DNA of 28,586 nt from Clostridia bacterium (GTDB lineage: Bacteria > Bacillota > Clostridia > RGIG6154), in NCBI GenBank assembly GCA_017523005.1, contig JAFWXG010000178.1, positions 1 to 28,586 on the forward strand, given 5' to 3'. A model generated the notes under the pieces. The model was given only the letters and a program-made list of their open reading frames with translations, was not told where the DNA came from and made no database searches. This document shows positions 9,252-28,586 of the stretch, piece by piece. Made by a program: the position numbers and the translations under genes. Numbering within the stretch: position 1 is the first letter of the stretch; each line of letters opens with the position of its first letter.

Positions 9252-10736
9252 GTGAAGGCTATCGGGTTTGATAACGAAAAATACATAAAAATACAGTCTG
9301 AACAAATCAGAAAACGAATATCTGAATTCGGTGGCAAGCTTTACATGGAATTCGGCGGAAAGCTTTTTGACGACCATCATGCAGCAAGAGTCCTGCCTGG
9401 TTTCGCCCCCGACTCCAAACTTAATATGCTGTTAGAACTCAAAGACCGTGCGGAAATCGTAATTTCGGTGAGTGCAATTTCTCTTGCAATGGAGAAAAAG
9501 CGTCGTGACCTCGGAATTACTTACGATTTGGAGGTTTTAAGACTTATTGACCTTTTCAGAAGTGTCGGTCTTTATGTAGGCAGTGTTGTTATTACTCAGT
9601 ATGACGGTCAGAAAGCTGCCGACAAATTAAAATCAAGACTCGAGGCAAGCGGTATTCCTGTGTTTATTCATTATATGATTCCAGGCTATCCGTCTGATGT
9701 TCAGAGAATTGTAAGTGACGAGGGATATGGCAAAAACGATTATATAAAAACCACCAGAGAGCTTATAGTGGTAACTGCACCAGGTCCGGGAAGCGGAAAA
9801 ATGGCAACCTGTCTATCCCAGCTTTACCACGAAAACAAAATGGGAATTGCGTCGGGTTATGCTAAATTTGAAACATTCCCAATCTGGAGTATTCCGCTTA
9901 AGCATCCTGTAAATTTAGCTTATGAATCTGCAACCGCAGATTTAAACGATGTTAACATGATTGACCCTTTCCATTACGAGGCTTATGGCGAGGTTGCAAT
10001 AAATTATAACCGAGATGTGGAAGTTTTCCCTGTATTAAACGAGATTTTTAAGCAGATTTACGGACAATCTCCATATAAATCACCTACCGATATGGGTGTA
10101 AATATGGCGGGCTTTTGCATAAGCGATGACGAGGTTGTTTCAGAGGCTTCCCGTCAGGAAATTATAAGAAGATATTATGGTGCGGTTTGTGACCGCCTGA
10201 GAAACGGAAACGAAACTCAGGAGGTTGAAAAAATCAGCATGATTATGAATCAGGCAGGAATTCAGCTTACCGACAGAAATGTTGTAAAATCTGCCATAGA
10301 AACAGAACAAAAGACAGAAAGTCCTGCTATGGCAATTTCATTGCATGACGGAACTATGATTACAGGCAAAACAAAAAAATTACTCGGTTGTTCAGCTGCA
10401 GCAGTGCTTAATGCACTAAAATATTTAGCAGGAATTGACGATAAAGAAGAATTGTTGCCACCTGCTTTAATTGAACCTGTTCAAGACCTTAAAGTAACAT
10501 TTTTAGGTTGTAAAAACCCCAGACTTCATGTAGAAGAAGTGCTGATTGCTTTATCTGTAAGTGCGGCTAACAATCAGGACGCAGCAAAAGCACTTTCAAT
10601 GCTCCCCAAACTTGCGGGGTGCGAGGCTCATTCTACTGTAATTTTATCTTCAGTGGACGCAGATATTTTCAGAAAGTTAAATGTGAACCTTACCTGTGAG
10701 CCACAATTCCAGAGTAAAAATTTATATCATATATAA
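9252..10736 (+). CDS. DUF1846 / UPF0371 family protein
   Basis: KLYMEFGGKLFDDHHAARVLPGF, VTAPGPGSGKMATCLSQLYH, AKFETFPIW and SPTDMGVNM motifs. GTG start. Confidence 0.9.
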   Translation: MKAIGFDNEKYIKIQSEQIRKRISEFGGKLYMEFGGKLFDDHHAARVLPGFAPDSKLNMLLELKDRAEIVISVSAISLAMEKKRRDLGITYDLEVLRLIDLFRSVGLYVGSVVITQYDGQKAADKLKSRLEASGIPVFIHYMIPGYPSDVQRIVSDEGYGKNDYIKTTRELIVVTAPGPGSGKMATCLSQLYHENKMGIASGYAKFETFPIWSIPLKHPVNLAYESATADLNDVNMIDPFHYEAYGEVAINYNRDVEVFPVLNEIFKQIYGQSPYKSPTDMGVNMAGFCISDDEVVSEASRQEIIRRYYGAVCDRLRNGNETQEVEKISMIMNQAGIQLTDRNVVKSAIETEQKTESPAMAISLHDGTMITGKTKKLLGCSAAAVLNALKYLAGIDDKEELLPPALIEPVQDLKVTFLGCKNPRLHVEEVLIALSVSAANNQDAAKALSMLPKLAGCEAHSTVILSSVDADIFRKLNVNLTCEPQFQSKNLYHI

Positions 10737-10791: not shown

Positions 10792-11454
10792 TTATTCTCC
10801 AAACAACTTTTTGTTATTCTCTATAATTTCTGCCTGTCGTTTTGCTTTTTCTTCTTCATAATTTGGATTTTCCAAATGCAATTTTTCAATTATCTGTGGC
10901 AGTTCTTCAATTTCAAAAATTCGTTCCTTATCCTTGCAGTTTTCGTATGTTGTCATTAAATTGTCTTTCGGCACGAATTTGCCCTGATACATACCTGACA
11001 GCACATAATAGTCCTCATCAGTTTTCAAATCGCCATCATCATAAGATAAAAACAGCAAAACCTTTTCGCCGATAGAAAAATCGGGATATCCGTCAGAAGC
11101 GACTTGGTATTTCTCATCTTCGCCCTTGTTAATCCTGACAGCTATGATTTCCGATTTCGGCTCGCCTTTAAAGATTTTGTCAACCTCAACAAAAATGTCT
11201 GTCTGCAAAATGTTGCGTGCCATATCTTTTTCAAATCCCGGATTGCTCCACTTGGATTTGCCGATTTCTTTTACGGTTCCTGTAACAATCAATTCAGAAT
11301 CAAGAACAAGATAATCGTCTGTTACCCCCGCCACAAGACCTGAAACATTATATTGAGTTTTTTCTGGCTCATCTTTTTTTACAGCATTGAATGAACAGGA
11401 TGTGAGTAATAAAATAACGGCAATAACCGAAATAATTTTATTTAATTTCCTCAT
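10792..11454 (-). CDS. Uncharacterised lipoprotein
   Basis: Signal peptide with lipobox LLTSC, RBS GAGGAGG, and upstream TTGACT-N17-TATATT. Confidence 0.8.
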   Translation of the reverse strand: MRKLNKIISVIAVILLLTSCSFNAVKKDEPEKTQYNVSGLVAGVTDDYLVLDSELIVTGTVKEIGKSKWSNPGFEKDMARNILQTDIFVEVDKIFKGEPKSEIIAVRINKGEDEKYQVASDGYPDFSIGEKVLLFLSYDDGDLKTDEDYYVLSGMYQGKFVPKDNLMTTYENCKDKERIFEIEELPQIIEKLHLENPNYEEEKAKRQAEIIENNKKLFGE

Positions 11455-11537
11455 ATAATGTCCTCCTCTTGTGATGCTTTGTAATTAAAATATAACATTT
11501 TATTGCCTATAAGTCAATACTATCCGTCATTATAAGC

Positions 11538-11567
11538 AAATGGAGCGATAATTACATCGCTCCATTT
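11538..11567 (-). terminator. Terminator hairpin after spoVAE
   Basis: AAATGGAGCGA-N8-TCGCTCCATTT. Confidence 0.72.
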
Positions 11568-11569
11568 CC

Positions 11570-11923
11570 TTACTTTTCTTTGGATTTTGAAAGCACTGAT
11601 GCTATTACACCAAACAGGATAGCGGCGGCAATACCGCCTGCAGTTGCAGTAAGTCCGCCTGTGAAAATTCCCAAAAAGCCTTGTTCTGTGACTGCTTTTT
11701 CCACCCCTTTTGCCAGGGAATACCCAAAGCCTGTAAGGGGTACTGTTGCTCCTGCACCGCCGAATTCAACCAGCGGTTCATACACACCTATAACTTGCAA
11801 AAAAACTCCCGCAACCACATACATAACTAAAATTCTTGCAGGGGTAAGCTTGGTTTTGTCAATTAAAATCTGGCCTATTACACAAAGCAGACCGCCAACT
11901 ATAAATGCTCTTAAAAATTCCAT
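11570..11923 (-). CDS. spoVAE: Stage V sporulation protein AE
   Basis: AFIVGGLLCVIGQILIDKTKLTPARILV and GAGATVPLTGFGY motifs. Confidence 0.93.
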   Translation of the reverse strand: MEFLRAFIVGGLLCVIGQILIDKTKLTPARILVMYVVAGVFLQVIGVYEPLVEFGGAGATVPLTGFGYSLAKGVEKAVTEQGFLGIFTGGLTATAGGIAAAILFGVIASVLSKSKEK

Positions 11924-12921
11924 CAGGCATCCGTCCTTTCTATTGCAACCGCATGAGCAATCCCGGGAATATTTTCCCCTTGGAAACAGGTTGTAGGGTT
12001 CATTAACGCACCTGTTGCAGTGAGTAAAATTCTCTTGTATTTCTTGTTTTGCAAAAGCTTATACAACCAACCCGAGAATACCGACGCACAGCATCCGCAT
12101 CCTGAACCGCCTGCATGAGTATCCTGGCGTTTACCGTCAAAAATCTGTTCTCCGCAATCTAAATACCTATCCTTTACATCTATTCCATATCCAAAAAGCT
12201 GTTCTTCAACTATCTGTCTGCCAACCATACCCAAATCCCCTGTTACTACCAAGTCAAAGTAATCGGAAGATAAATTTCTGTCCTTAAAATGGCGAACTAT
12301 TGTGTCTATTGCAGCAGGAGCCATGGCGGCGCCCATATTGTTAACATCTTTAATTCCGTAGTCTACTATTTTCCCTACTGTTGCATGAGTTATACGGATA
12401 TCTCCGCCTGTTGACACGAGTGCCGCTCCTGAACCTGTTACTGTCCATTGAGCTGTAGGTGTGCGCTGACCTCCATACTCAAGCGGAAATCTGAACTGTC
12501 TTTCAGAACTGCAAAAATGACTTGATGTTATAGCAACCGCCTTTTTAGCATGACCACCATTTACTGTAATACTTGCTAAAATCAAACCTTCAACAAATGT
12601 AGAGCACGCACCGTAAAGTCCAAAAAACGGTATATTAAAATCAAGCAAGCCGTAATTTGAGCCTATGCACTGATTAAGCAAATCCCCGCCAAAAACAACA
12701 TCAATGTCACTTGGTTTAAGCTTTGTCTTGTCAAGCAAAGTTTGTAAAGTATTTTTTACCAGTCTGCTTTCCGCTTTCTCCCATGATTTTTCTCCCAAAT
12801 AAGCGTCCTGATAAATATTGTCGAAATACTGCCCTAAATTTCCCTCTCCCTCTTTTTTACCTACTGATGATGCTGTTTCTAAAATACAAGGGTATCTGTC
12901 CTCAAAGGTTAATGTTGACAA
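11923..12921 (-). CDS. spoVAD: Stage V sporulation protein AD
   Basis: VGKKEGEG, GGDLLNQC, GLYGACST, SSHFCSSERQFRFPLEYG, NMGAAMAPAA and HAGGSGCGC motifs. TTG start after AAGGAGG. Confidence 0.95.
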   Translation of the reverse strand: MSTLTFEDRYPCILETASSVGKKEGEGNLGQYFDNIYQDAYLGEKSWEKAESRLVKNTLQTLLDKTKLKPSDIDVVFGGDLLNQCIGSNYGLLDFNIPFFGLYGACSTFVEGLILASITVNGGHAKKAVAITSSHFCSSERQFRFPLEYGGQRTPTAQWTVTGSGAALVSTGGDIRITHATVGKIVDYGIKDVNNMGAAMAPAAIDTIVRHFKDRNLSSDYFDLVVTGDLGMVGRQIVEEQLFGYGIDVKDRYLDCGEQIFDGKRQDTHAGGSGCGCCASVFSGWLYKLLQNKKYKRILLTATGALMNPTTCFQGENIPGIAHAVAIERTDA

Positions 12922-13009: not shown

Positions 13010-14179
13010 TTAAAATTTTCTCCACACCATTTTGTCAACCACACCGGTATATGACTGAATGATTTTTACAACCTTTGTGGAAACATTTTCTTCTATGTAG
13101 TCAGGAACGGGAATTCCGTAATCTTTGCTTTCGTTCATCTCAATGGCTGTGTCTACCGACTGGAGCAATCCCTTTTCATCAATACCCGAAAGAATGAAGC
13201 ACGCTTTGTCAAGCGCCTCGGGGCGTTCTGTCGATGTTCTTATGCAAACAGCGGGGAACGGCTTGCCGATACTTGTAAAGAACGAACTTTCTTCGGGAAG
13301 TGTTCCGCTGTCCGACACTACTGCAAAAGCATTCATTTGCAGACAGTTGTAATCATGAAATCCTAATGGTTCGTGCCTTATAACTCTCTTATCAAGCTTA
13401 AATCCGCTTTCTTCAAGGCGTTTTTTGCTTCTCGGGTGGCACGAATAAAGGATTGGCATATCGTATTTTTCAGCCATTTTATTTATTGCCGTAAAAAGGC
13501 TTGTGAAGTTCTTTTCCGTATCAATATTTTCTTCTCTGTGTGCAGAAAGGAGAATGTACTTTCCTTTTTCAAGACCAAGTCGGGAATGAACATCGCTTTG
13601 CTCAATTTCTTTAAGGTTGTTATGAAGCACCTCCGCCATGGGTGAGCCTGTTACATAAGTCCTTTCCTTTGGAAGACCGCAATCCGCAAGATATCGTCTT
13701 GCATGCTCAGAGTATGCCATATTGACATCTGATATAATGTCAACAATTCTTCTGTTTGTTTCTTCGGGCAGACATTCATCTTTGCAACGGTTTCCTGCTT
13801 CCATGTGGAAAATCGGAATGTGAAGTCTTTTTGCACCTATTACCGACAGGCACGAATTAGTATCTCCCAAAACCAAAACCGCATCAGGCTTTAATTCTGC
13901 CATAAGCTGATACGACTTTGCGATAATGTTTCCCATAGTTTCGCCAAGGTCATTTCCTACCGCATTTAAGTAAACATCAGGGGCATCAAGTTTTAAATCC
14001 TTGAAAAACACACCGTTTAGGTTGTAATCGTAATTTTGTCCCGTATGTGCGAGAATGGTATCAAAATATTTTCTGCATTTGGTAATAACTGCAGAAAGAC
14101 GAATAATCTCGGGGCGGGTCCCCACAATAATTAACAATTTAAGCTTGCCATTGTTTCTAAATGTAGCATTAAATTCCAT
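13010..14179 (-). CDS. fnlC: UDP-N-acetylhexosamine 2-epimerase (FnlC/Cap5G/WbjD)
   Basis: VGTRPEIIRL, HTGQNYD, LGDTNS, HMEAGNR, HREEN and DSGT motifs. Start at 14179 after GAGGAGG. Confidence 0.92.
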   Translation of the reverse strand: MEFNATFRNNGKLKLLIIVGTRPEIIRLSAVITKCRKYFDTILAHTGQNYDYNLNGVFFKDLKLDAPDVYLNAVGNDLGETMGNIIAKSYQLMAELKPDAVLVLGDTNSCLSVIGAKRLHIPIFHMEAGNRCKDECLPEETNRRIVDIISDVNMAYSEHARRYLADCGLPKERTYVTGSPMAEVLHNNLKEIEQSDVHSRLGLEKGKYILLSAHREENIDTEKNFTSLFTAINKMAEKYDMPILYSCHPRSKKRLEESGFKLDKRVIRHEPLGFHDYNCLQMNAFAVVSDSGTLPEESSFFTSIGKPFPAVCIRTSTERPEALDKACFILSGIDEKGLLQSVDTAIEMNESKDYGIPVPDYIEENVSTKVVKIIQSYTGVVDKMVWRKF

Positions 14180-14180
14180 T

Positions 14181-15377
14181 TTATACCTCCTCGTAAAATG
14201 TATCGGGCCTATTTTTATCAAACTGCTCGTTTGCCCACATGAGTGTTACAAGATTTTCGGTTTCGGAAAGATTGATTATGTTGTGTGTATAGCCTGGCAA
14301 CATATGCACTGCTTCAATTTTATCTCCTGAAACATAGAAATTCAAAATCTCATCTGTGCCTATTTTCCGTTGCTGAATAAGCCCTTTACCGCTCACTACT
14401 ATGAAAAATTCCCATTTAGAGTGGTGCCAGTGCTGTCCTTTTGTTATGCCCGGCTTTGAAACATTAACCGAAAACTGACCGTTATTCTTAGTCTTTAGAA
14501 TTTCGGTAAAGCTTCCTCTTGTGTCCTCATTCATCTTTAGAGGAAAAGAAACTTTTTCTTTAGGAAGATAAGAAAGATATGTACTGTAAAGCTTCTTTTC
14601 AAAGGAATTTTGAGGGATTTCGGGCATAACCAAGGTTTCTGGTTGAGTCTTAAAACTTTCAAGGATATCAACAATTCTTCCTAAAGTTACTTTGTGCGTA
14701 ACAGGTACTGCGCAATATTTTCCGTCACTCTTAAGGACTGTATTTATGCCGTCAAATTCCGCGTGATGCTCTTTTCCTTCTAATGCGTCAAGCATTTCTG
14801 AAACTAAATCGTCTATATAAAGAAGTTCAAGCTCCACATTTCTGTCGCTTACGGTTATAGGCAAGTCATTTGCTATATTGTTGCAAAAGGTTGCAACTGC
14901 GCTATTGTAATTTGGTCTGCACCATTTGCCGAAAAGATTTGGAAATCGATAAACCAAAACAGTAGCACCTGTTTCTTCAGAATAACTAAACAAAAGTTCT
15001 TCCCCTGCTTTTTTACTTCTTCCGTAGTCGCTGTCATATCTGCCGATACAGGTCGCCTGAATTGAAGACGAAAGCATGACGGGGCAGGTGTTTTTGTGTT
15101 TTTTAAGCAAGTTGAGAAGATTGCCTGCAAAATCGCAATTTCCCTGCATGAATTCTTCGGGGTTTTGCGGACGGTTTACCCCTGCAAGATTAAACACAAA
15201 ATCTGCTTTTTGTGCGTATTCATCAAGCAAATCGGAGTTTGTATCCAAATCGTATTCAAAAATTTTGCTAATATTAAGTTCAGGGCGGGTTTTATCTTTT
15301 CCGTCACGAATATTTTTAAGACTTTCACATAGATTTTTCCCTACAAAGCCTTTCGCCCCTGTAACAAGAATATTCAT
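14181..15377 (-). CDS. fnlB: Bifunctional epimerase/reductase with C-terminal cupin (FnlB/Cap5F/WbjC)
   Basis: TGAKGFVG, LAGVNRP, YGRSK, NLFGKWCRPNYNS, KGQHWHH and PGYTHNI motifs. Confidence 0.92.
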   Translation of the reverse strand: MNILVTGAKGFVGKNLCESLKNIRDGKDKTRPELNISKIFEYDLDTNSDLLDEYAQKADFVFNLAGVNRPQNPEEFMQGNCDFAGNLLNLLKKHKNTCPVMLSSSIQATCIGRYDSDYGRSKKAGEELLFSYSEETGATVLVYRFPNLFGKWCRPNYNSAVATFCNNIANDLPITVSDRNVELELLYIDDLVSEMLDALEGKEHHAEFDGINTVLKSDGKYCAVPVTHKVTLGRIVDILESFKTQPETLVMPEIPQNSFEKKLYSTYLSYLPKEKVSFPLKMNEDTRGSFTEILKTKNNGQFSVNVSKPGITKGQHWHHSKWEFFIVVSGKGLIQQRKIGTDEILNFYVSGDKIEAVHMLPGYTHNIINLSETENLVTLMWANEQFDKNRPDTFYEEV

Positions 15378-16423
15378 TACCTCACACCCTTTGTAAGCTC
15401 GTCCTGAATGTATTTCAGACTTGCGATTTTAACCTTTGTTTCCTCAACACTTAAAAGCTTTGTATTATTCGAATTGAACTCGGTAAGCGTATTTCTCGTT
15501 GTGTCGCCTTTAATGTAATATTTGTCATAATTAAGGTCACGCTTATCGCACGGAACTCTGTAAAAATCGCCCATATCAACAGCGTTTGCACATTCTTCGT
15601 TGGTAAGAAGTGTTTCATACATCTTCTCGCCGTGACGGATACCTATTGTTTTAATATTTTCCTTATCCCCGCCAAACAGCTCGCAAACAGCCTCTGCCTG
15701 GGTTTTAATTGTACAAGCGGGTGCTTTCTGGACTAAAATATCCCCGCTTTTGCCGTGTTCAAACGCAAAAAGCACCAAGTCAACCGCTTCATCCAATGAC
15801 ATTATAAATCTTGTCATGTCTGGGTTTGTTATTGTAATGGGGTTTCCCGATTTAATCTGCTCAATCCAGAGCGGAATAACCGAGCCTCTTGAACACATAA
15901 CATTTCCGTAACGGGTACAGCAAATCTTTGTTTTATCAGGGTTTACAGTACGGCTTTTTGCAACAACCACCTTTTCCATCATAGCCTTTGAAGTTCCCAT
16001 CGCATTTACTGGGTATGCCGCCTTATCGGTAGATAAGCAAACAACATTTTTAACTCCCGCCTCGATAGCAGCTGTAAGAACATTTTCTGTGCCTAAAACA
16101 TTTGTTTTTACCGCTTCAATGGGGAAAAATTCACAAGACGGAACCTGTTTTAATGCTGCTGCGTGGAATATGTAGTCAACACCCTGCATAGCGTTTCTCA
16201 CAGACTGAATGTCACGCACATCGCCTAAATAAAACTTAATTTTATCCGCAACTTCAGGCATTTTTACCTGAAATTCATGACGCATATCATCCTGTTTTTT
16301 TTCGTCACGCGAAAAAATTCTAATCTCCCCTAAGTCTGTAGTAAGAAAACGATTCAATACGGTATTTCCAAATGACCCTGTTCCTCCGGTAATAAGGAGG
16401 GTTTTGTTTGTAAATAATGACAT
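15377..16423 (-). CDS. fnlA: UDP-GlcNAc 4,6-dehydratase/5-epimerase (FnlA/Cap5E/WbjB)
   Basis: TGGTGSFG, SRDEKKQ, AAALKQVPSCEFFP, STDKA, RYGNVMCSRGSVIP and RHGEK motifs. Confidence 0.94.
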   Translation of the reverse strand: MSLFTNKTLLITGGTGSFGNTVLNRFLTTDLGEIRIFSRDEKKQDDMRHEFQVKMPEVADKIKFYLGDVRDIQSVRNAMQGVDYIFHAAALKQVPSCEFFPIEAVKTNVLGTENVLTAAIEAGVKNVVCLSTDKAAYPVNAMGTSKAMMEKVVVAKSRTVNPDKTKICCTRYGNVMCSRGSVIPLWIEQIKSGNPITITNPDMTRFIMSLDEAVDLVLFAFEHGKSGDILVQKAPACTIKTQAEAVCELFGGDKENIKTIGIRHGEKMYETLLTNEECANAVDMGDFYRVPCDKRDLNYDKYYIKGDTTRNTLTEFNSNNTKLLSVEETKVKIASLKYIQDELTKGVR

Positions 16424-16452: not shown

Positions 16453-17184
16453 TCAATAAACCTTTTCAATAATACCATAATTTTTCTTCTTGTTGGTATC
16501 ATCTCCCACATGGTACATTCCTTCAACAGTAAAATCATCCCATGGATGCTTTCTCTTTCTGAGAAGAATCTGCAACGCACGAAGAACACTGCCCTGACTA
16601 ATCAAAAGCACCTTTTTACCTGCGTACTGCTCGTTGATAATGTCGAACACATCTACACAGTTTGCGATTACCATTCCCCACGATGTTCCGCTTTGAGTTC
16701 TGGCAAACATATTGTTGTCAAACTCGCGAGCGATAAATGTGGGATTATGCTGAAGTTCCTCAAACGACTTATATTCCCAACCGGTATTGTCAATGCCATG
16801 AAGCTTATGAATCTTGATCGCCTCAAATTTCTGTGGTTTTTCCATTATGATAAGCTGTGTATTTACTACACGAGGAATAGGACCATAAAGTGCGATATCA
16901 AAATTGTATGCGTCAAGTTCTGCAGCCTGTTTTCTGGTGATTTCAATTCCGCTTTCGGTAAATCCACAGTTATCTGATGTATCGCACATGAATTCATGCT
17001 TTACAACAGCTTCCGTCTCTGCGTGGCGTATTAGGTATATAGATTCACATTTTATCTCCGGAATGCTTGTCCCAGGGATATAATCAATTTCCCCTGTCTC
17101 CTGATTTATTGCGATACCGTATCTAAGCAATTTCTCTGTAATATGTACTCTTTCAGACACAGGAATCGTATTTATATCAAACAT
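16453..17184 (-). CDS. Divergent histidine phosphatase (phosphoglycerate-mutase-like) family protein
   Basis: IYLIRHAET, GPIPRVV, GWEY and VLLISQG match the RHG / SPLxRA / GxWEG / SHG layout. It has an N-terminal extension of about 45 aa. Confidence 0.75.
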   Translation of the reverse strand: MFDINTIPVSERVHITEKLLRYGIAINQETGEIDYIPGTSIPEIKCESIYLIRHAETEAVVKHEFMCDTSDNCGFTESGIEITRKQAAELDAYNFDIALYGPIPRVVNTQLIIMEKPQKFEAIKIHKLHGIDNTGWEYKSFEELQHNPTFIAREFDNNMFARTQSGTSWGMVIANCVDVFDIINEQYAGKKVLLISQGSVLRALQILLRKRKHPWDDFTVEGMYHVGDDTNKKKNYGIIEKVY

Positions 17185-17196
17185 ATTGTCTTCTCC

Positions 17197-17748
17197 TTAT
17201 TTCTGTAGTAATCCGATAACCTTTTCAGTCAACCCATTCTGAATGATATATTCGTATACTGCGTTAGGGACCATGTCTTTCCACTCATCTCCGTTGACAA
17301 TCTTCTGTCTGATTTCGGTAGAGCACATTGCCTTTTCTCTGGTATCAAACAACACCACTGTGCCATAGCCGAGTTCTCCCAGTCTATGCAGTTTCTCATA
17401 TCCCCAATCGTCGTAAATAGTAAAGAACGAGGTTGCACTAATCGGCACATAATTATAAAGAATTTCGGGGCGTTCAATGGGGAATGGAACTATTTCAAAG
17501 TCTTCCCTTTTCAACCCGGCTTCGAGAAGTGCCACCTTTACCATGTTGAATCTTTCATAGAAGGTAAAGGGGTTGGCTGCTGCATTACTTCTGTGCGGAT
17601 CAACCTCCTCGTGAAGCAAATTTGAATTTTCAGGGGATGTAATACCCACGATAAGTTTTTCGCATTGCTCCTTTGCAAGCAAAGCATATCTCAAGTGGTC
17701 GTTATGGAACAACTGAAATCTGCCGTGAATAAATCCGAGTTTTACCAT
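17197..17748 (-). CDS. HIGH-superfamily nucleotidyltransferase, NadM/NMN-adenylyltransferase-like
   Basis: HGRFQLFHNDH, NPFTFYER and STEIRQKIVNGDEWKDMVP motifs. RBS GGAGG. Confidence 0.82.
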   Translation of the reverse strand: MVKLGFIHGRFQLFHNDHLRYALLAKEQCEKLIVGITSPENSNLLHEEVDPHRSNAAANPFTFYERFNMVKVALLEAGLKREDFEIVPFPIERPEILYNYVPISATSFFTIYDDWGYEKLHRLGELGYGTVVLFDTREKAMCSTEIRQKIVNGDEWKDMVPNAVYEYIIQNGLTEKVIGLLQK

Positions 17749-17930
17749 TTAGGTTCCTCCAGTAATTTGATTTATATTTTAAGAGCTAATTAAAAGTTAG
17801 ACCCCAAATATATTTTTTAACAAATCATTTATGTAAACAGGAAATAAATGTTTTAGTTATATCTCCTTCAACTCTTTCATCAAAAACTTGTTTAGATTTT
17901 TCTTCGGTGGTTCTGTCGGCTTGTTCAATA

Positions 17931-19451
17931 TTATTTTTTTCTCCGACAAACCATCCTTAAAACTATTGACCGCATTTGCCTGCGCTCGTTTTTTGTTGCC
18001 CCGATTATAAAAATCAACGCAAAATAAAGAACAAGGATGATGGTTGCCTTAATCATCAAAGACATCCAATCACAATGAGGAATAAGATAGTTTACTCCTA
18101 CTCCAAACGCTATGGTTATAGCCATACATATTCCTAACGGAATGTAGCATTCCGTAAATAGCTTTTTAATGTCCATTTTCAGGATTTTGTGATATGCGAT
18201 AAAATATCCGATATTTCGCACATTATATGCGACAAAAATCGCCGCGCAAGCACCAAGTACGCCATACTTTCCTGACCAGATAAATGCCAAAATCACATTG
18301 ATAATTCCCACGGCTACATTGGTAATAGCTTGAATCCTCACACGATTTTTCATCATCACAGCTGTATTGGCAATCTGGAGCGAATAGTAGAACAAACTCG
18401 GTATGGTGACAAACAGTATGCCGTAATATGCCATACTATAAGATTCGTCCAGCCACAGCAGAATAAAATCCTTTCCTAACAGAAGAAACCCCGTAACGAT
18501 CAGACCATGCAGTGCAAATTGGAATCTCCCTACCTTAACAATCAAGCTATTGAGCTTAAAAGTGTAATTTTCCTCGGTCAATATCCTCGATATGCGTGGC
18601 ATGAACATACCATTGAGTGCTGTTGTTACGAGATGGATATAATTTTCCATAAGCGACACAATGCCAAAAACAGCAATAGCCGCAGTGCTGGAGACAATGC
18701 CCAAAATAGATGGGGTAATACCAAAAATTAACCGTTGGGCAAGAGTTGATATGGTAACCCACAAAGAAAAGCCCAACAGATCTCCGACCATTCCTTTTCC
18801 TTTGTAAGAAAAATTGATTTTAATCGGAGTCTTTGATTTTATGACAAACAGTTTGAATGCCAGAACCAATACGCCCACAATGGTGTTGACACAAACCAAT
18901 GCATACAAACCACCATTGCATAATAATGCTACGACTGTAATCAACACACTAAAAATTCGATACAGAGCATCGGCTATTTTTAGTGTAATAAATTTCTCAT
19001 ACGCATTCAGTATTCCCGTAAAAGTAACACATGGGAAGTTGATGACAGCAAACACAGCAGAGATTATGAATACCACTCTGAATCGCTGAATCTCCAATGG
19101 TGTCAGATTAGTGTATATCTGCTCCAGAAAAACAGAAATTACAACCAGAACAATACAAATAATTGCGTCAATAATAAAATACAGCTTGTAGATAGCACCT
19201 AATATACAATCCACCTTGTCCTGTCGTCCTTCAGCCAAATACTTTGACACAAATCGAGATGTTGCTGCACTCAATCCGAAGTCAAATAAGAACAAATTGA
19301 TAAGCGAATTTGCCAGCGTGTATAAGCCGTAATCCGAATCTCCTATTTGTTTGACAATCCACGGCGTATATAGCAGACCAGACACAATATTGATGGCAAT
19401 TGTCAGGTAGGCTATTACTGCACCAATTTTTAATTCTTTAGATCGATTCAT
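17931..19451 (-). CDS. wzx: Wzx-type polysaccharide flippase (MOP superfamily)
   Basis: 506 aa with many hydrophobic segments, and GAVIAY, YTPWIVKQIGDSDYGLY and FDFGL motifs. Located in a polysaccharide locus. Confidence 0.88.
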   Translation of the reverse strand: MNRSKELKIGAVIAYLTIAINIVSGLLYTPWIVKQIGDSDYGLYTLANSLINLFLFDFGLSAATSRFVSKYLAEGRQDKVDCILGAIYKLYFIIDAIICIVLVVISVFLEQIYTNLTPLEIQRFRVVFIISAVFAVINFPCVTFTGILNAYEKFITLKIADALYRIFSVLITVVALLCNGGLYALVCVNTIVGVLVLAFKLFVIKSKTPIKINFSYKGKGMVGDLLGFSLWVTISTLAQRLIFGITPSILGIVSSTAAIAVFGIVSLMENYIHLVTTALNGMFMPRISRILTEENYTFKLNSLIVKVGRFQFALHGLIVTGFLLLGKDFILLWLDESYSMAYYGILFVTIPSLFYYSLQIANTAVMMKNRVRIQAITNVAVGIINVILAFIWSGKYGVLGACAAIFVAYNVRNIGYFIAYHKILKMDIKKLFTECYIPLGICMAITIAFGVGVNYLIPHCDWMSLMIKATIILVLYFALIFIIGATKNERRQMRSIVLRMVCRRKK

Positions 19452-19464
19452 AGTATCCCTTACT

Positions 19465-20619
19465 TTATTTCGCGAAAAGTTTGCGAAGTCTTCGTTTCAT
19501 TGCATAATATCTTCGAACCATTTTGCTCGGCAATACTTTTTCCGCATCATATTTTCTTACCAATGTCTCATAATCGCAAACAGGTAATTCGTTGAAAAAT
19601 GATTTCCTGCATGACGGCTTACGGGAACTCATCATCAGGTGATCATACAGCTTAACCGTATGGTTAGTGTCCTTCTGCTCCATAACAATATCCCGTTTTA
19701 TTGCCTCTATCAGAGCATTTCCCTTCTCTGAATTAACAAATACCGTGTTGACTCCAATCTCGTTATCCGTATCATCCAAATCTTTTCCTATATAGTCTGC
19801 GAGTGTAATATCAGAAGGTCGTTTCCGAGAAGTGAACGGACATTTATAACAACTTTCTCTGACACTAAGTGAGGTAGCAAACCAGTAATATACACCTGAA
19901 TCGGTGGTGTTCCGAACCGTCTTGTCCGGATACTCGACTTGTATCTCAAAGCAAGCTTTTTTGTTGCGATATCCTTGACTCTTATTTCGAAACCGTATCG
20001 AAATTGGTAAAGTTGTTTGATTCAGGGAGTCAATGTATTTGTCAAACACATAGCGTGAGGATACGCCATGGCAAACGAAATCCACCAGATACAATTTGTC
20101 GTACTCTTTTCCCAGATAGTTCTGAAGAGCCGATACCTGACACGGAGTACCAATAAACAGCACAGGCTTATTCGCTTGCAACTGTTCTCTCACATGGCGG
20201 TAGACGCCCACCGTATAGCTTTGCAAATACTTGGACCCCTTAAAACCATTCAACTCTTCTAACTCTGAAGCCAGGCTGTGTTTCAAGCAAAATGTATCAT
20301 CAAACCCGCAACCGGCAACTGTACCCCCGTTCTTGATCACATACTCGCTCAAAACCGAAGCAATACCACCTGATGTACTTTGTATGGCAGCCTCCTTATC
20401 CGTACGGCGTGCCTTATACGCCTTTTGAATTCCATGAGGTTTGTTGGGGTAATTCGCTGGACATACATCCTTACAACGATGGCAATTTATACAGAGACTG
20501 TCATCAATATAGCTTTTATAGAACCCATGAGCATCATATTTAATTGAAATGCACTGCTTGGGGCATACATCTGCGCACATACCACAACCGGTACATTTCG
20601 ACGATTTACAAATTTCCAT
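19465..20619 (-). CDS. 2x[4Fe-4S] ferredoxin fused to an F420 hydrogenase beta-subunit (FrhB-like) domain
   Basis: CTGCGMCADVCP, CINCHRCKDVCP, STSGG, GSKY, GTPCQV, DFVCHG and CYKC motifs. Start MEICK after GAGG. Confidence 0.86.
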   Translation of the reverse strand: MEICKSSKCTGCGMCADVCPKQCISIKYDAHGFYKSYIDDSLCINCHRCKDVCPANYPNKPHGIQKAYKARRTDKEAAIQSTSGGIASVLSEYVIKNGGTVAGCGFDDTFCLKHSLASELEELNGFKGSKYLQSYTVGVYRHVREQLQANKPVLFIGTPCQVSALQNYLGKEYDKLYLVDFVCHGVSSRYVFDKYIDSLNQTTLPISIRFRNKSQGYRNKKACFEIQVEYPDKTVRNTTDSGVYYWFATSLSVRESCYKCPFTSRKRPSDITLADYIGKDLDDTDNEIGVNTVFVNSEKGNALIEAIKRDIVMEQKDTNHTVKLYDHLMMSSRKPSCRKSFFNELPVCDYETLVRKYDAEKVLPSKMVRRYYAMKRRLRKLFAK

Positions 20620-21775
20620 AAGAACCTCTCTCTTTATCGTAATGCAACGCATCTGTCAGAAATTGACGATCTGTTTGTCGTTTTCTGCCAAGAAGTTCAT
20701 GCGCCTTCTGAAAATCTATGTCATACAAGAAATCAGCAGAAAAGGTGTCATTTGCATCTACTAATCTGTCACTAAGTTCCACCATATCCAAGAGAGTAAC
20801 CAATCGGTCATTCATACTCTTCTTGTCACTCTTATCAAATCGGCAAAGCGAAATAAACGGAGTTTTTAAATTGATCGAAAAAGCGGTGGCGTGGAATGAA
20901 TCAGTAAGTACTAACGATGCGTTTTTGATCAGGCTGATAAATTCTGCCGGACCGGCATCAAATATTTTTTCATCATCCGAGGACAGTTCTCTGGGCACAA
21001 ACGGTATACAGACAACCTTCATTCCTGTCAATTCCTTGACCTTTTGCTTAACAGAAGCAATGTATTCACGCTCACCAAACAAGTAGCAAAACACATACGG
21101 TTCTTTGAATATACGGGGAGCTGCCACTTGGGACCAGTCATCCTTATCCAGCAAAAGCGTGGGGTCCAGAACCACTGTTGCTTTTTTTTCAGAAATGGCG
21201 TTGATAATATCAGCACCCTTTTGCTCTCTGGTAGAAATCACATCAAAACGGTTAAGCAACGGAGCCATAAACGCGGCTTGCTTTTTATTTACCGTGGAGA
21301 CTCCAACGCTTGAGGCGTAGGAAATTTTCAAGGCATCCTCTGGCGCAAAACCAGCAAAATAAAAGCCGTTATCACAATACAAATTGGGATTCCATATCTG
21401 ATCACTTCCACACAGGTACACATCATACTGTGGTGGATTTTTAACATAGTCATCGTAGCAAGTATATCCTGTTTTATTGATGCAAAGGTTTTTGCATCGG
21501 AAATCTTCAAATCTCTTTGCTTTTGACGAAGTCTGCGATAAATACTGCTGATATGTTCTTCTCTTGGCAAGATAATCAGAAGGATTCTTTATCGCACATA
21601 GAAGGTTGGCCGTTTTCTCCTTCATTTTTTTGAATCCTGTTTTTTGATTTAAAAATTCGTTTGAAATAAGTTCACAATCAAGATGATTGGCTTTTACCAT
21701 TTGCTGAAGAGCATACGCCTGCAAGACGCCTCCGTAATTATCCCCGTAATATGTAATCAAACCAACTTTTTTCAT
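20606..21775 (-). CDS. Polysaccharide pyruvyl transferase family protein
   Basis: NYGGVLQAYAL, GSDQIWNP, SYASS, TREQ, DPTLLL and TDSFHATAFSI motifs. Confidence 0.9.
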   Translation of the reverse strand: MKKVGLITYYGDNYGGVLQAYALQQMVKANHLDCELISNEFLNQKTGFKKMKEKTANLLCAIKNPSDYLAKRRTYQQYLSQTSSKAKRFEDFRCKNLCINKTGYTCYDDYVKNPPQYDVYLCGSDQIWNPNLYCDNGFYFAGFAPEDALKISYASSVGVSTVNKKQAAFMAPLLNRFDVISTREQKGADIINAISEKKATVVLDPTLLLDKDDWSQVAAPRIFKEPYVFCYLFGEREYIASVKQKVKELTGMKVVCIPFVPRELSSDDEKIFDAGPAEFISLIKNASLVLTDSFHATAFSINLKTPFISLCRFDKSDKKSMNDRLVTLLDMVELSDRLVDANDTFSADFLYDIDFQKAHELLGRKRQTDRQFLTDALHYDKERGSYGNL

Positions 21776-22920
21776 ACATTCTCCTTTTCGCATTTCAAAA
21801 ACGCATTCAAATCACGAGCAAATGTCTCATGCAGTTCATGCAATCTGTCTGACGAGTCGCAAGTATGATCTACTGGAACACACATGACCGCATTGGCAAT
21901 ATCCTTAGGGGTAGGAGTATCGTAATAGAAAATGTAATCCTTAACATTAGATGTCTCCACCACAGGAATTCGGATACTCACGACCGAAATTCCATTGGAC
22001 ATATACATCAAAATTTTAGACGGAAATGACGAAGCGTTATATTTCCCGTCAGGTTGTTGTGTGCTAAGTCCTATATGGCAAGACTGGATAAATGCGTCAA
22101 ATTCTTTTCCTGTCTTATATCCATCGAAAACGACGCTGCACTTGGTTCTCGCAGACACCTGCTCAATCTTTTTTATAACCATTTCGGTATCAGCCTCGGT
22201 TCCATTCCCCAAAATATGCAATACATAATTATCATCCAGATATTCAGCGGCTTCAATGGCAGAGAAGGCTCCCCCTTTCACAGGGTTGAAGGTGCCCGCA
22301 TATACGATATGTATTTTACCATCGTTGAATTTTTTGCTATATTTTGGAACAGCCCGATAGGTTCCGTGAGAGATTATTCTCGGTTTATTTTGTCCATTGA
22401 CTTGCTTGTTCAGCAGTTCGGTTATGACAATGTATTTATCTGCAATCTGCAGATACTCAAGTTCTTTTTCTCGCAATACTTGATCTTCATTGACATCCGA
22501 ATACAGTTCCTCTACCTCAATAATCAGATGGCATTTCTTCTCTTTCTTGAGTTTTTTTACAACACTCATCAACGCCAATGAATGGTAAACAACTACCGTA
22601 TCATCGGACTTTACATGTGTCATTAAAAAGTGAAGCAGTTGAAATTTTGTCCAAATGTGTCCCAAGCCGCGAATGATTTTATTCTTACTGTGAAAGGAAT
22701 CAAATGTTCTCAGGGACACTCGACCATTCAAGTCATGTAAACTCCCCTTGACATAGCTATGCAAGGAAGTTTCGCAGGGAGAAACCACGATTGAATGGAT
22801 ATCAGTCATTTCTGACAACACCGATATTATATATCCCATTTTGTTCATAGCGGGAGGTGCCGCTACTCGTTTTTCAGCCGCGATCTGCTCACAGCTATAG
22901 TATCCCAAATAATATACCAT
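21772..22920 (-). CDS. Glycosyltransferase, GT-B fold (GT4-like)
   Basis: IVYAGT, LHILG, SFPSKILMYMSNGISVVS and DIANA motifs. Located in a polysaccharide locus. Confidence 0.78.
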   Translation of the reverse strand: MVYYLGYYSCEQIAAEKRVAAPPAMNKMGYIISVLSEMTDIHSIVVSPCETSLHSYVKGSLHDLNGRVSLRTFDSFHSKNKIIRGLGHIWTKFQLLHFLMTHVKSDDTVVVYHSLALMSVVKKLKKEKKCHLIIEVEELYSDVNEDQVLREKELEYLQIADKYIVITELLNKQVNGQNKPRIISHGTYRAVPKYSKKFNDGKIHIVYAGTFNPVKGGAFSAIEAAEYLDDNYVLHILGNGTEADTEMVIKKIEQVSARTKCSVVFDGYKTGKEFDAFIQSCHIGLSTQQPDGKYNASSFPSKILMYMSNGISVVSIRIPVVETSNVKDYIFYYDTPTPKDIANAVMCVPVDHTCDSSDRLHELHETFARDLNAFLKCEKENV

Positions 22921-23010: not shown

Positions 23011-26000
23011 TCAGTCGATCATCTTGCCGTCTTCATCAAAGGTGTGGTAGCCCACCTCGACCATAGAGCCGTCAGCATAGGTCTTGCCTGCTACAAATTT
23101 GGAACTGAGCCATAATTTAATGTTCTTAGCAATCTTATTACCATCATTGATGAAGTAGAAATTGCCATCATATTCTACCAGCTGATATGCGTTCAAACGA
23201 ATGCCATTGCGATAGAAATAATCCCCAATAATGCCATTTTTACCAACCATCTTGCCCTCTCCATCAAAGGTGTAGTAGCCCTCAGCTAATGGAGTGCCGT
23301 CCTCATAAGTGAAACCGCTCACAAATCTGTTGATTAAGTAAAGACGACAATCTTTGGCAATTTTGTGACCATCGTTTATGAAATAGAAGTTATCCTCATA
23401 ATTGACGAGCTGGTAGCAATTCAAACGAGCATTGTTAATATACAGATAGTCGCCAATAAGACCCTGTCTGATAACCATTTTACCTTCTTCATCGAAACTG
23501 TAATTACCTGCAGGCAAAGGAGCGCCATCTGCAAAAGTATGTCCGCTGACAAATTTGTTGTTAAGATATATTTCTCTGTTAATTGCAAGTCTGTGGCCTG
23601 CGTCGATAAAGTAGTAGTCACCTTCGTAGTTGACAAGCTTGTAGTTGTTCTGACGAACATTGTTTACATAGAAATATCTGTCAACAGGGCCGTTCAAAAT
23701 TACCATCTTGCCTTCTTCATCAAAGATGTAGTAACCTACAGTCAAGGGTGTACCGTCATCATAGGTATGTCCGCTGACAAAACGGCTGCCAAGATAAACA
23801 CTGCAGTCCTTCGCAATCTTGTGACCGTCGCTGATGAAGTAGAAATCGCCATCGTAGTTGATAAGCTGGTAGGCAGTTTGACGAGCATTATTGATATACA
23901 GATAATCGCCGATAACACCGTTTCTGATTATCATCTTACCTTCTGAATCAAAGGTGTAGTTGTCTTCAGGCAAAGGAGTGCCGTCTGCAAAGGTGTGTCC
24001 GTCAACAAAACGACTGCCAAGGTAAATAGTGCAATCTTTTGCAATCTTGTGACCATCTCCAATAAAGTAGAAATCGCCATTATTGTTGACAAGTCTGTAG
24101 TTGCTCTGACGAATATTGTTTGCATAGAAATATTCACCAGAAGGACCATTTTTAATAATCATTTTGCCGTCTGCGCCAAAGGTGTAGTAGTCCTCCGAAA
24201 GAGGTGTGCCATCCGAATAGGTGTGTCCGTTAACAAAACGACTGCTCAGGTAAATAGTCTTATCTACAGCATATCTGTGTCCTGCATCAATAAAGTAGAA
24301 ATCGCCTTCGCTCGACTGAACCAGCTTGTAGTTCTGCTGCATAACTCCATCGATATAGAAGTATCCGTTATATGGGCCAACCAACAAGGTTGCAATACCA
24401 TCAGCATCACAATTATAATAAACAGTCTCTTTTGTAGTCGGCTCGAAATAATGGTATACACCATCAGTCAGCAAGTAGCCATACTTATCAAAGATATAAA
24501 GGTTACCGTCAATTTCATAACGCTCGCCGGCGGATTTGGTCGGAGATGTCTTTCTGTAGTAGCTTGGACCGTACCAATAGCGCATTTTGCCATTTACCTT
24601 GACCCAAGTACCATCTAACAATCGTCCGTTATCAAAGCTGAACTTAACAGCATTTTGGCTGTATTGCTCGCCATCTACACCAACAAAGGTCTTTTCGTCA
24701 AAGAGATACCACTCTTCATCAATCATCTGCCAGCCACCAAGCAATATACCATTCATAGCGTAATAGTTTTTACCATTTACTGTCTGCAAACCGGTAGCGT
24801 TAGACACTCTGCCACAATCGCAAACGATCTTGTTACCCGATACCTTGAAGGTATGACTGGTTGCAGGAATGGTAGTACCCCAATCCACTACAGAATTACA
24901 AACCTCGCAAAATGTTCTGTCGGTATATCCGTTTTCTGAGCATGTAGAAGCCTTATCAGTGAGAGCTACAGGAGTGTGTACATGAGTAGTACCATGTTCA
25001 GAGAAGTACGCCTTATCCATGTTTGCCATACTTGTGTACATTTCGGTGTCCACATGGAATTCTTCGTTTGAAAAAGTACTGGTCTTTCCGTCAATATGAG
25101 TAATAAGTCCCATATCAACATCCATCTTCATATCCTGAGCCCAGAAGGGATAGGTTGTCCAATAAGTTTGTGCAGTATAACCCGGAGTCTTGATATCAGT
25201 ATCAAAATATAAAATACGAACAGGAAGCTTAGCAAGAGTTTTAGCTCCAGTATCATAATTAGTGCCTGTGCGGGTAATAGTAATAGTTGCAGTATTAGTT
25301 TCTTCTGCGATTGTGTAAGTTGCATCAAATCCTTCTGCAATCTCCATGTGATCAAGCTCCCAATGGTTAACATTATTGAGGTCGATTACAGCAGAAACGG
25401 ATTGAATGGTTTCAATCGCAGTTGCTTCAAGGTTCATCCAGTATACTGAACCAAAATGTATTCTATCAAGTGTCGAATCATCGGGAACGACATTTATCGT
25501 AGACTTCTCTTCTCCGGATTCAACTTTAATTACGCGGATAACCACAGACTTGTTGCCCATGTTATCACAGATCTCGAATTTAACACGATGATATCCATCA
25601 GGAACAACAATCCCGTTTGCAGAAAGAACGCCATTTGCAAAGGTGGACTTAACCTCAACACCATCAATGTAGACCTTTGCTGTAGCAGCATTCAAACCTG
25701 ATGCATTGTAAAGAGGGATTTCATTCTTATTAGCATCAAGCTTGAAATCCTTATCTCTTACAGCAGCAGACAAATTAAGAGTGTTGTTTGAAGTTGTGAC
25801 AACATCACGCTTAACGAGAGCAGTACTACCATCAAGATATATCTTGTCAAATACAGGATTTTCCCTATCTTCAACAGCCTCGGAATAGTCTACGGTAAAG
25901 TTATCAAGATAATATGTGTAGTTTCCGTTTATAGAACCATTTTCCTGCCAAAGCTTATTGTTGATAGCCTTATGGAAAACGATAGCAAGGAAAAATTCGC

Positions 26001-28151: not shown

Positions 28152-28586
28152 CTATAATTTATACGCTTTAAAGCCGTGATGTGTCTTCTGCTTTTCCTTT
28201 GGTGGCTCGGGCAGATAGTCTCCATACAAGCAGGTAAGGTATTTGTCCCAACCGATTGGAGCAGGAAACATTTCGCCTTCAAATTCAACATCAACGGTGT
28301 CGGCAAATACTTCTGCCGGAATTATGCCCTTTTCTCCGTAAACACACCATGCCTTACAGCCTAAGTAGTTGTTGCCATTTTGTCCTTCTTTATTGCTTGC
28401 TTTGATGATTTTTTCGATATAATGCTTACTTCCAACCATCTTGCAAAAACTCATAAGGAGCCCTTTGACAAGCCTTTTTGCCAAACCTATCGAGTCCGGC
28501 TTCTTTAGCTTTGATAAACCAAGTGCAAACATATTCTTACGAATATACTTAACCTCTCGTTTTGCTTTTTCAAGATCATCATCCCA
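28152..28586 (-). CDS. licD: LicD-family phosphotransferase, C-terminal part (5' end outside the window)
   Basis: EFEGEMFPAPIGWDKYLTCLYGDYLPEPPKEKQKTHH is the typical LicD C-terminus. The frame is open to the window edge (WDDDLEKAKREVKYIRKNM...). Confidence 0.85.
   Translation of the reverse strand, partial: WDDDLEKAKREVKYIRKNMFALGLSKLKKPDSIGLAKRLVKGLLMSFCKMVGSKHYIEKIIKASNKEGQNGNNYLGCKAWCVYGEKGIIPAEVFADTVDVEFEGEMFPAPIGWDKYLTCLYGDYLPEPPKEKQKTHHGFKAYKL

Follow-up and report, generated by a model that had tools for sequence, protein, structure and literature searches.

Introduction

Which compound is made by a nucleotidyltransferase and a histidine-phosphatase-fold protein that are encoded side by side in the middle of a bacterial surface-polysaccharide operon? 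This question is raised by a contig of 28,586 nucleotides (JAFWXG010000178.1, assembly GCA_017523005.1), which was analysed over its whole length and is here called the window. It covers the contig entirely and comes from a metagenome-assembled genome (MAG) of a Clostridia bacterium, which has a size of 1.2 Mb and a completeness of 82%. The two genes encode a nucleotidyltransferase (NT) of the PF01467 superfamily and a protein with a histidine-phosphatase fold (HP). A preliminary description of this DNA had proposed that they form an undescribed route to a nucleotide-activated substituent for the LicD enzyme or the glycosyltransferases of the locus. Here, NT and HP are described as an obligate functional unit, which is tied to surface-glycan loci in approximately 48 independent Clostridia loci. 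In most of these loci a third gene is present, encoding a protein of the DHH type (DHH). With moderate confidence, NT, HP and DHH are regarded as an undescribed module that makes a nucleoside monophosphate (NMP)-activated phospho-donor, which ends as a phosphodiester substituent of the surface glycan. No paper on the NT-HP pair was found in literature searches.

An obligate gene pair in Clostridia glycan loci

NT and HP are real genes, as indicated by their many homologue clusters and confident predicted folds. Each has more than 100 homologue clusters, with identities of 66-94%, and for NT more than 300 clusters were found, the best 120 of which are 78-89% identical. A scan of species-representative genomes with NT resulted in 50 loci, nearly all from MAGs of rumen and hindgut Clostridia, including Oscillospiraceae, Acutalibacteraceae, Lachnospiraceae and others. 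In all 46 loci with a detected HP homologue, which cover many Clostridia families, HP is located downstream of NT on the same strand at a distance of 11-76 nt. Locus L053 stops too early to judge the presence of HP. Locus L051 (4807-8255) is the one close-family locus with NT and no HP; the space for HP beside NT is filled by other genes. Judged by eye only, the genes preceding this NT are selenophosphate synthetase-like and cysteine desulfurase-like, and a flavin-reductase-like open reading frame (ORF) follows it. A 238-amino-acid ORF beside the NT of L057 was considered as a hidden HP and was rejected; it does not resemble HP and appears to be spurious.

The distribution of the pair is sparse and patchy. 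It was found in none of 17 other genomes of the order and in 2 of the 399 other genomes sampled from the class. Between different families, NT has a median identity of 83% and HP one of 79%, which indicates that the two genes travel horizontally together with the glycan locus. The close-family module is always found among capsule (cps)-type genes, encoding Wzz, CpsB, LCP, a priming transferase, GT2 glycosyltransferases and EpsG. In the complete locus L025, the order is Wzz, CpsB, LCP, priming transferase, GT2, DHH, NT, HP, LicD, a protein with a phosphodiester glycosidase (NAGPA) domain, GT2 and EpsG. The preliminary description had left room for a role of the pair in NAD metabolism or in a phage-related or defence cassette; the neighbourhood survey places it in Wzx/Wzy glycan loci. 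Separate searches gave no defence or phage signal, and the fusion partners of its relatives are phosphotransferases and not NAD enzymes.

A third gene encoding a DHH protein

The two-gene view of the preliminary description holds for the NT-HP pair but overlooked the DHH gene, which belongs to the module in most loci. A DHH gene of approximately 315 codons is located directly upstream of NT in 40 of the 47 informative loci and within 2.2 kb in two more. The encoded protein is a diverged relative of the family II (DHH/DHHA2) manganese pyrophosphatases (PDB 4rpa, E 1.5e-7); it matches model NF003877 with an E value of 2.5e-18, yet far below the cut-off of that model. In L024, the Wzx flippase and DHH are read as a single ORF of 750 amino acids upstream of NT, which may be a true fusion or may result from a frameshift or an error of assembly.

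The DHH gene is missing from L013, L033, L051, L053 and the window, and none was detected elsewhere in the 82%-complete source MAG. When the region upstream of NT in the window (17749-17930) was compared with related loci by blastn, the last 57 nt or so before NT aligned at 93% identity with the 3'-terminal part of the DHH gene of L023 and its spacer. This remnant indicates that the window lineage has lost the DHH gene. The dispensability of DHH fits a helper role in the removal of pyrophosphate.

The glycan operon of the window

The window contains a surface-glycan operon on the minus strand, of which the LicD end is cut by the contig border. The genes follow each other in the order LicD, NAGPA protein, GT4-type glycosyltransferase, pyruvyl transferase, FrhB-like protein, Wzx, NT, HP and FnlA/FnlB-like/FnlC. 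The features are as follows.

28152-28586, minus strand: LicD-family phosphotransferase, truncated by the contig end (PF04991, E 8.5e-7)
23011-28089, minus strand: secreted protein of 1692 amino acids with a phosphodiester glycosidase (NAGPA) domain and C-terminal repeats of approximately 95 amino acids (PF09992, E 1e-22)
19465-22920, minus strand: FrhB-like Fe-S protein, polysaccharide pyruvyl transferase and GT4-type glycosyltransferase (Pfam)
17931-19451, minus strand: Wzx-type flippase of 506 amino acids (PF01943, E 1e-13, and MatE; 75% identity to the flippase of L018)
17754-17810, minus strand: DHH-gene remnant upstream of NT, approximately 57 nt (blastn, 93% identity to L023)
17197-17748, minus strand: NT, a PhpF/NMNAT-like nucleotidyltransferase of 183 amino acids (PF01467, 34.8 bits)
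16453-17184, minus strand: HP, a histidine-phosphatase-fold protein of 243 amino acids (PF00300, 59.1 bits)
13010-16423, minus strand: FnlA, FnlB-like and FnlC genes for the synthesis of UDP-6-deoxy-L-N-acetylhexosamine, downstream in the same operon (TIGR04130, 516 bits; NF047837, 362 bits; TIGR00236, 221 bits), with the FnlA-type gene at 15377-16423

The tight coupling of the two genes between wzx and fnlABC, as first described, is confirmed with respect to the ORFs, the gaps and the flanking genes. NT and HP are separated by 12 bp, HP and FnlA by 29 bp, and Wzx and NT by 182 bp, with GGAG-type ribosome binding sites ahead of the NT, HP and FnlA starts. Approximately half of the related loci likewise have Fnl-type genes after HP. 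No second nucleotidyltransferase was detected among the conserved neighbour gene clusters of these loci.

The most constant neighbour of the module is the NAGPA protein, which is usually encoded directly after LicD. A homologue is present within 10 kb in 32 of the 50 loci, and in 21 of the 23 loci where the upstream flank is complete. The protein in the window has a signal-peptide-like N terminus, and its C-terminal 500 residues or so consist of the repeats (GDFYFI..DGHKIAK, FD.EGKM). A GW..D..WY.FD stretch gives a weak, sub-threshold match to Choline_bind_3. Full-length LicD orthologues are encoded within 10 kb in 23 of the 50 loci, in five of them directly after HP, and LicD is present anywhere in the genome in 102 of 400 genomes of the class. 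Among five carriers without a nearby LicD, three have the gene on another contig.

In one of the carriers without LicD (L050, 6765-13321), the operon has a second, divergent cytidylate kinase copy and an RPE-like gene, both ahead of the trio and close to it. For this locus only, these genes are leads to cytidine nucleotides and a ketose phosphate, respectively. A 224-amino-acid protein, the N terminus of which looks WbqC-like by eye, is also encoded ahead of the trio in L050, and a GH43 enzyme and a GlpQ-like phosphodiesterase follow after it.

Some further features of the window were observed. The polysaccharide pyruvyl transferase and FrhB/FpoF-like 4Fe-4S genes (19465-21793, minus strand) share an overlap of 47 nt, and the same gene types are seen again as cluster c21 in L018, L039 and L055 and as cluster c30 in L036 and L041. 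The end of the glycan operon adjoins the sporulation genes spoVAD and spoVAE (10792-12921, minus strand), near which a 220-amino-acid ORF without a family match is located. A DUF1846 protein is encoded on the opposite strand (9252-10736, plus strand).

The nucleotidyltransferase

NT scores above the gathering threshold of PF01467, the cytidylyltransferase-like superfamily with the HxGH motif (34.8 against 21 bits). The predicted model has a pLDDT (predicted local distance difference test) of 87, and its nearest folds in Foldseek are those of archaeal nicotinamide mononucleotide adenylyltransferase (NMNAT), at TM (template modelling) scores of 0.72-0.81, with 1m8f, 4yp7 and 1f9a as the top structures (TM 0.70-0.81). 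By sequence, NT matches PDB 1f9a with an E value of 5.5e-13. No TagD or CCT structure is present among the 50 nearest folds. The NMNAT models are matched well below their cut-offs (TIGR01527, 66.1 against 181.2 bits; NF002243, 68.3 against 127 bits), and the same holds for the HldC model TIGR02199 (21.1 against 181.5 bits). Compared with archaeal/NadM NMNAT, NT has a clade-specific insertion (DPHR) of approximately 12 residues, in which His52-Arg53 are invariant and Pro51 is invariant except in the fused form.

The active-site motifs of NT are GRFQLFHNDH, with HNDH at residues 15-18, and CSTEIR, which corresponds to the second, ISxTxxR-type motif. Both histidines of HxGH are thus kept, and the glycine is replaced by aspartate. 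The replacement of (H/T)xGH by HNDH had been pointed out in the preliminary description and is indeed present in NT, but it is not peculiar to NT and is shared across a large family: HNDH is found in 117 of 120 close and in 64 of 120 wider relatives, and the remainder mostly have HxGH. HNDH as a mark of special chemistry was therefore rejected, since a single broad family has either glycine or aspartate at this position, and HxGH is what the HP-NT fusions carry.

The histidine-phosphatase-fold protein

HP scores above the cut-off of PF00300, the histidine phosphatase superfamily, branch 1 (59.1 against 21.7 bits), and has an N-terminal extension of 47 residues. The pLDDT of its model is 94.5, and the nearest structures are PhoE (1h2e), phosphoserine phosphatases, CobC and the phosphatase domain of PFKFB. 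The alpha-ribazole phosphatase (CobC) model TIGR03162 is matched below its cut-off (41.3 against 162.9 bits). The HP family is small; a set of 1.8 billion proteins, clustered at 50% identity, contains approximately 13 clusters of it with full-length representatives.

Across 25 members of the family, the most distant of them 30% identical, Arg53-His54 and the second phosphate-binding arginine, Arg105, are invariant. Alignment to PDB 4ij5 places Gly130 at the position of the proton-donor glutamate and Gln197 at that of the second catalytic histidine (in 'SHG'). These two replacements are present in every one of the 25 aligned members and in the fused forms, whereas canonical outgroups retain glutamate and histidine. 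Further residues are invariant in the family, among them Ser70, Asn72 and Arg153-Glu154. Because the proton donor and the second histidine are replaced family-wide, the role suggested for HP in the preliminary description, that of a simple GmhB-type phosphatase, is probably not correct. The kept nucleophile and the remodelled pocket suggest an altered chemistry, such as phosphotransfer, a mutase reaction or the handling of a substituted phosphoryl group.

Gene fusions and the wider nucleotidyltransferase family

In distant lineages, HP and NT are fused into a single protein (P0137/P0211, 509 amino acids; P0141, 447 amino acids). In these fusions, the HP signature is kept and the NT part has HxGH. 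A metagenome contig with 28% guanine plus cytosine (L061) encodes an HP-NT fusion, followed by one small ORF and a DHH orthologue with 40% identity to the Clostridia DHH. The recurrence of the trio on this distant contig indicates that it is old and self-contained. The fusion ORF of L061 (2278-3972) encodes 564 amino acids, against 509 in the database cluster; the excess is an internal direct duplication of approximately 55 residues around the RH motif, which is either an assembly artefact or a true tandem duplication. In the close family, a DHH-NT fusion is also present (P0247).

Other relatives of NT are fused to different partners. Three HNDH-bearing relatives (46-47% identity) have a CDP-alcohol phosphotransferase domain as their fused partner. 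The DGx2ARx8Gx3Dx3D motif of these domains is intact, and their top models are (archaetidyl/phosphatidyl)inositol-phosphate synthase and IPCT/DIPPS. One further HNDH relative (49% identity) is fused to an ApgM-like domain. This domain scores 531 bits on the NCBIfam PhpG model (cut-off 545 bits), which is named 'CMP-5'-phosphonoformate--3-phosphoglycerate phosphonoformyl transferase', and 293 bits on the true ApgM model. These partners consume CMP- or CDP-activated phospho-donors, and the NT clade thus appears to feed such enzymes repeatedly. The stand-alone NT family comprises at least 398 clusters, from Desulfovibrio, Syntrophus, Asgard archaea and others, in which HxDH and HxGH are mixed. 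One member of the wider family is labelled PhpF by its source (JGI). Another HNDH relative (L056, 9992-11755; 46% identity) has no HP or DHH and is located beside two Nudix genes and a LysR regulator.

A proposed route to a phosphodiester substituent

As to the chemistry, the nucleotide, the identity of the compound X and the order of the steps, we infer the following from the gene linkage, the fusions and the active sites. NT would convert a nucleoside triphosphate and a small phosphorylated compound (X-P) into NMP-P-X and pyrophosphate. By analogy with the fused relatives of NT, the triphosphate would most likely be CTP, and the nucleotide of the module is probably cytidylyl. The DHH protein would clear the pyrophosphate, and in the window lineage a housekeeping enzyme presumably stands in for it. 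HP would work through His54 on the same small molecule, just before or after NT, and may form X-P, trim it or transfer the activated group onwards. The activated group would become a phosphodiester-linked substituent of the glycan, most likely installed by LicD in the window.

Several observations weigh against this proposal. The functions of the NT clade and the HP family are predictions from sequence, and the closest solved relatives of NT, by both sequence and fold, are the adenylyltransferases NMNAT, NadM, NadD and PPAT, not cytidylyltransferases. HP lacks two catalytic residues, which makes its activity uncertain. In the 7 kb around the trio of L061, no recognisable glycan genes are present. 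In addition, LicD is not obligate, as two carrier MAGs with the trio show no LicD. LicD-family enzymes can also move sugar-1-phosphates from ordinary NDP-sugars. LicD might therefore be served by an ordinary NDP-sugar and form a separate pair with the adjacent phosphodiester glycosidase.

The proposed route to a nucleotide-activated substituent is thus supported in part, by the linkage to glycan loci and by the NT relatives fused to enzymes consuming CMP or CDP donors, but a plain phosphatase is probably not one of its enzymes. A donor for LicD in particular, which had also been suggested, agrees with the strong link between LicD and the module, but the link is not an obligate one.

Comparison with known systems

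The closest known system is formed by PhpF and PhpG of phosphinothricin tripeptide biosynthesis, in which a PF01467 nucleotidyltransferase is likewise combined with a 'phosphoglycerate mutase' type protein. PhpF is a CTP:phosphonoformate cytidylyltransferase of the PF01467 family (PMC6697681). The PhpF assays include added pyrophosphatase (bioRxiv 10.1101/2025.05.01.651723), and this pulling of the reaction matches the DHH gene of the module. The physical link is provided by the 49%-identical HNDH relative of NT with its PhpG-like domain. However, PhpG is a metal-dependent member of the ApgM/alkaline-phosphatase superfamily, whereas HP belongs to the unrelated histidine phosphatase superfamily. 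PhpF and PhpG are found in an antibiotic cluster and NT and HP in surface-glycan loci, and NT is likened to PhpF via its relatives and not via the sequence of PhpF itself. The substrate of NT is, unlike that of PhpF, probably not a phosphonate, since phosphoenolpyruvate (PEP) mutase was not found in five carrier genomes.

The IPCT/DIPPS-type enzymes with their phosphatase share the logic of a nucleotidyltransferase, a phosphodiester-forming transferase and a phosphatase, and the CDP-alcohol phosphotransferases fused to NT relatives of 46-47% identity score on inositol-phosphate synthase models. The IPCT domain has a different fold from NT, however, and the active site of HP is unlike that of a normal follow-up phosphatase. 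Neither the window nor the conserved neighbours contain a CDP-alcohol phosphotransferase, the role of which would be filled by LicD.

In the Lic pathway, consisting of the kinase LicA, the cytidylyltransferase LicC and LicD, a LicD-family transferase needs an NDP-activated phospho-donor, and such a transferase is also present in the operon of the window. PF01467-type enzymes make NDP-activated donors in teichoic-acid and capsule pathways (compare PMC10918830). With respect to Lic-, TagD- and CDP-6-fructose/glucitol-type activation, NT differs from LicC and has no close relationship to TagD, and none of these pathways includes a partner with the HP fold. Phosphocholine by the Lic route was rejected: choline kinase is absent from five carrier genomes, which makes the classical choline route unlikely, and the choline-binding match of the giant NAGPA protein is sub-threshold.

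In the ADP-heptose pathway, GmhB and HldC likewise couple a phosphatase-type protein to a nucleotidyltransferase of the PF01467 superfamily in a glycan pathway, and this general likeness, already drawn in the preliminary description, remains. The analogy does not extend further. GmhB belongs to the HAD family, residues that an efficient phosphatase should have are missing from HP, and NT is far below the HldC cut-off. No heptose isomerase or kinase is present in the loci, nor was any isomerase or sugar kinase detected among the annotated conserved neighbour clusters.

Alternative explanations

Another, tentative and rather unlikely, possibility is that HP itself is the transferase. His54 would attack the X-bearing phosphorus of the NT product, CMP would leave, and the substituted phosphoryl group would be passed to an acceptor hydroxyl. 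HP might then represent a non-hydrolytic, new functional branch of the histidine phosphatase superfamily and a convergent, fold-unrelated counterpart of PhpG, and LicD and the phosphodiester glycosidase would be a separate pair. This agrees with the fusion of NT to donor-consuming transferases, either CDP-alcohol phosphotransferases or PhpG-like, in lineages without HP, with the same fused position being taken by HP in P0137 and P0141, and with the two carrier genomes that have the trio without LicD. The changes of glutamate to glycine and histidine to glutamine would give space for a substituted phosphoryl group, and the acid removed by the loss of glutamate would not be needed with a good leaving group such as CMP. 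To our knowledge, however, no member of the histidine phosphatase superfamily forms or transfers phosphodiesters. A fused partner may equally act at an earlier step, as in HldE or Fom1; the solubility of HP would require a soluble acceptor; and LicD directly adjoins HP in several loci. If HP is the transferase, the module would decorate the surface glycans of many Clostridia of the rumen and gut with a group in phosphodiester linkage. It is less probable still that the product of the pair is a phosphodiester compound in soluble or lipid-linked form, for example a compatible solute or a polar head group. HP would then strip off a terminal phosphate after transfer, and the link to the glycan would be incidental. 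The best models of the fused CDP-alcohol phosphotransferases, inositol-phosphate synthase and IPCT/DIPPS, point in this direction, since di-inositol-phosphate and phosphatidylinositol-phosphate pathways need a follow-up phosphatase, and so do the glycan-free surroundings of the L061 trio. In the close family, however, the module lies inside cps operons in essentially every locus, between flippase and sugar-nucleotide genes, and a CDP-alcohol phosphotransferase is not found among the conserved neighbours.

A cassette for NAD or NMN salvage, as mentioned in the preliminary description, would have NT as an NMN adenylyltransferase and HP as a ribotide or NADP phosphatase, either inserted in the locus or supplying NAD to its sugar-nucleotide enzymes. 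NT shares the fold and the GRFQ..H..H and (S/C)ST.IR motifs with archaeal/NadM NMNAT, its best named matches and folds are archaeal NMNAT and NadM, the best named model of HP is alpha-ribazole phosphatase, and the two Nudix genes beside the NT relative of L056 recall NadM-Nudix. Nevertheless, this explanation is very improbable and was rejected as the main one, because the NMNAT scores (66-68 bits) are far below the cut-offs (127-181 bits), a separate NadD scores above its cut-off elsewhere in the source genome, and the context is one of glycan genes. NT also differs from NMNAT by its insertion, the pair is rare and is always in glycan loci, NT relatives are fused to phosphotransferases and not to NAD enzymes, and HP lacks two residues that phosphatases of its family normally need. 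Even less credible is a phosphonate-tailoring module, in which a phosphonate, for example 2-aminoethylphosphonate, would be activated by NT and then placed on the glycan by a LicD-type transfer. The activation of phosphonates is known from PF01467 enzymes, among them PhpF and the Fom1 cytidylyltransferase, and LicD-like transferases occur in phosphonoglycan loci (PMC6697681); a PhpG-like fusion also exists in the NT clade. This was rejected as well, since PEP mutase above the cut-off is absent from five carrier genomes, and none is present in the loci. Finally, the patchy distribution with 66-94% identity across Clostridia families, which implies horizontal spread, might be explained by a mobile defence or phage-derived cassette inserted by chance in a variable glycan locus. 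The constant place of the pair inside the operon, with spacing like that of translational coupling, speaks against such an origin, as do the absence of a PADLOC model match for NT, HP and DHH, the weak and generic PHROG matches, the lack of any match in 50,697 phage records and the finding that on plasmids only canonical phosphatases were matched. A defence or phage origin, which had been put forward as a phage-related cassette, was rejected on these grounds and is the least probable of all.

Implications

Dozens of uncultured Clostridia from the rumen and hindgut share this highly conserved module through horizontal transfer. Databases call its proteins NAD enzymes or a generic phosphatase, and the whole pathway is therefore mis-annotated or unannotated. 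Once its product is identified, the known routes to nucleotide-activated donors of bacterial glycans would be extended by one. The conserved loss of two catalytic residues in the HP family offers a test case for the re-tuning of the histidine-phosphatase fold, and a functional reference point would become available for the related stand-alone NT family, which has hundreds of clusters from bacteria and Asgard archaea.

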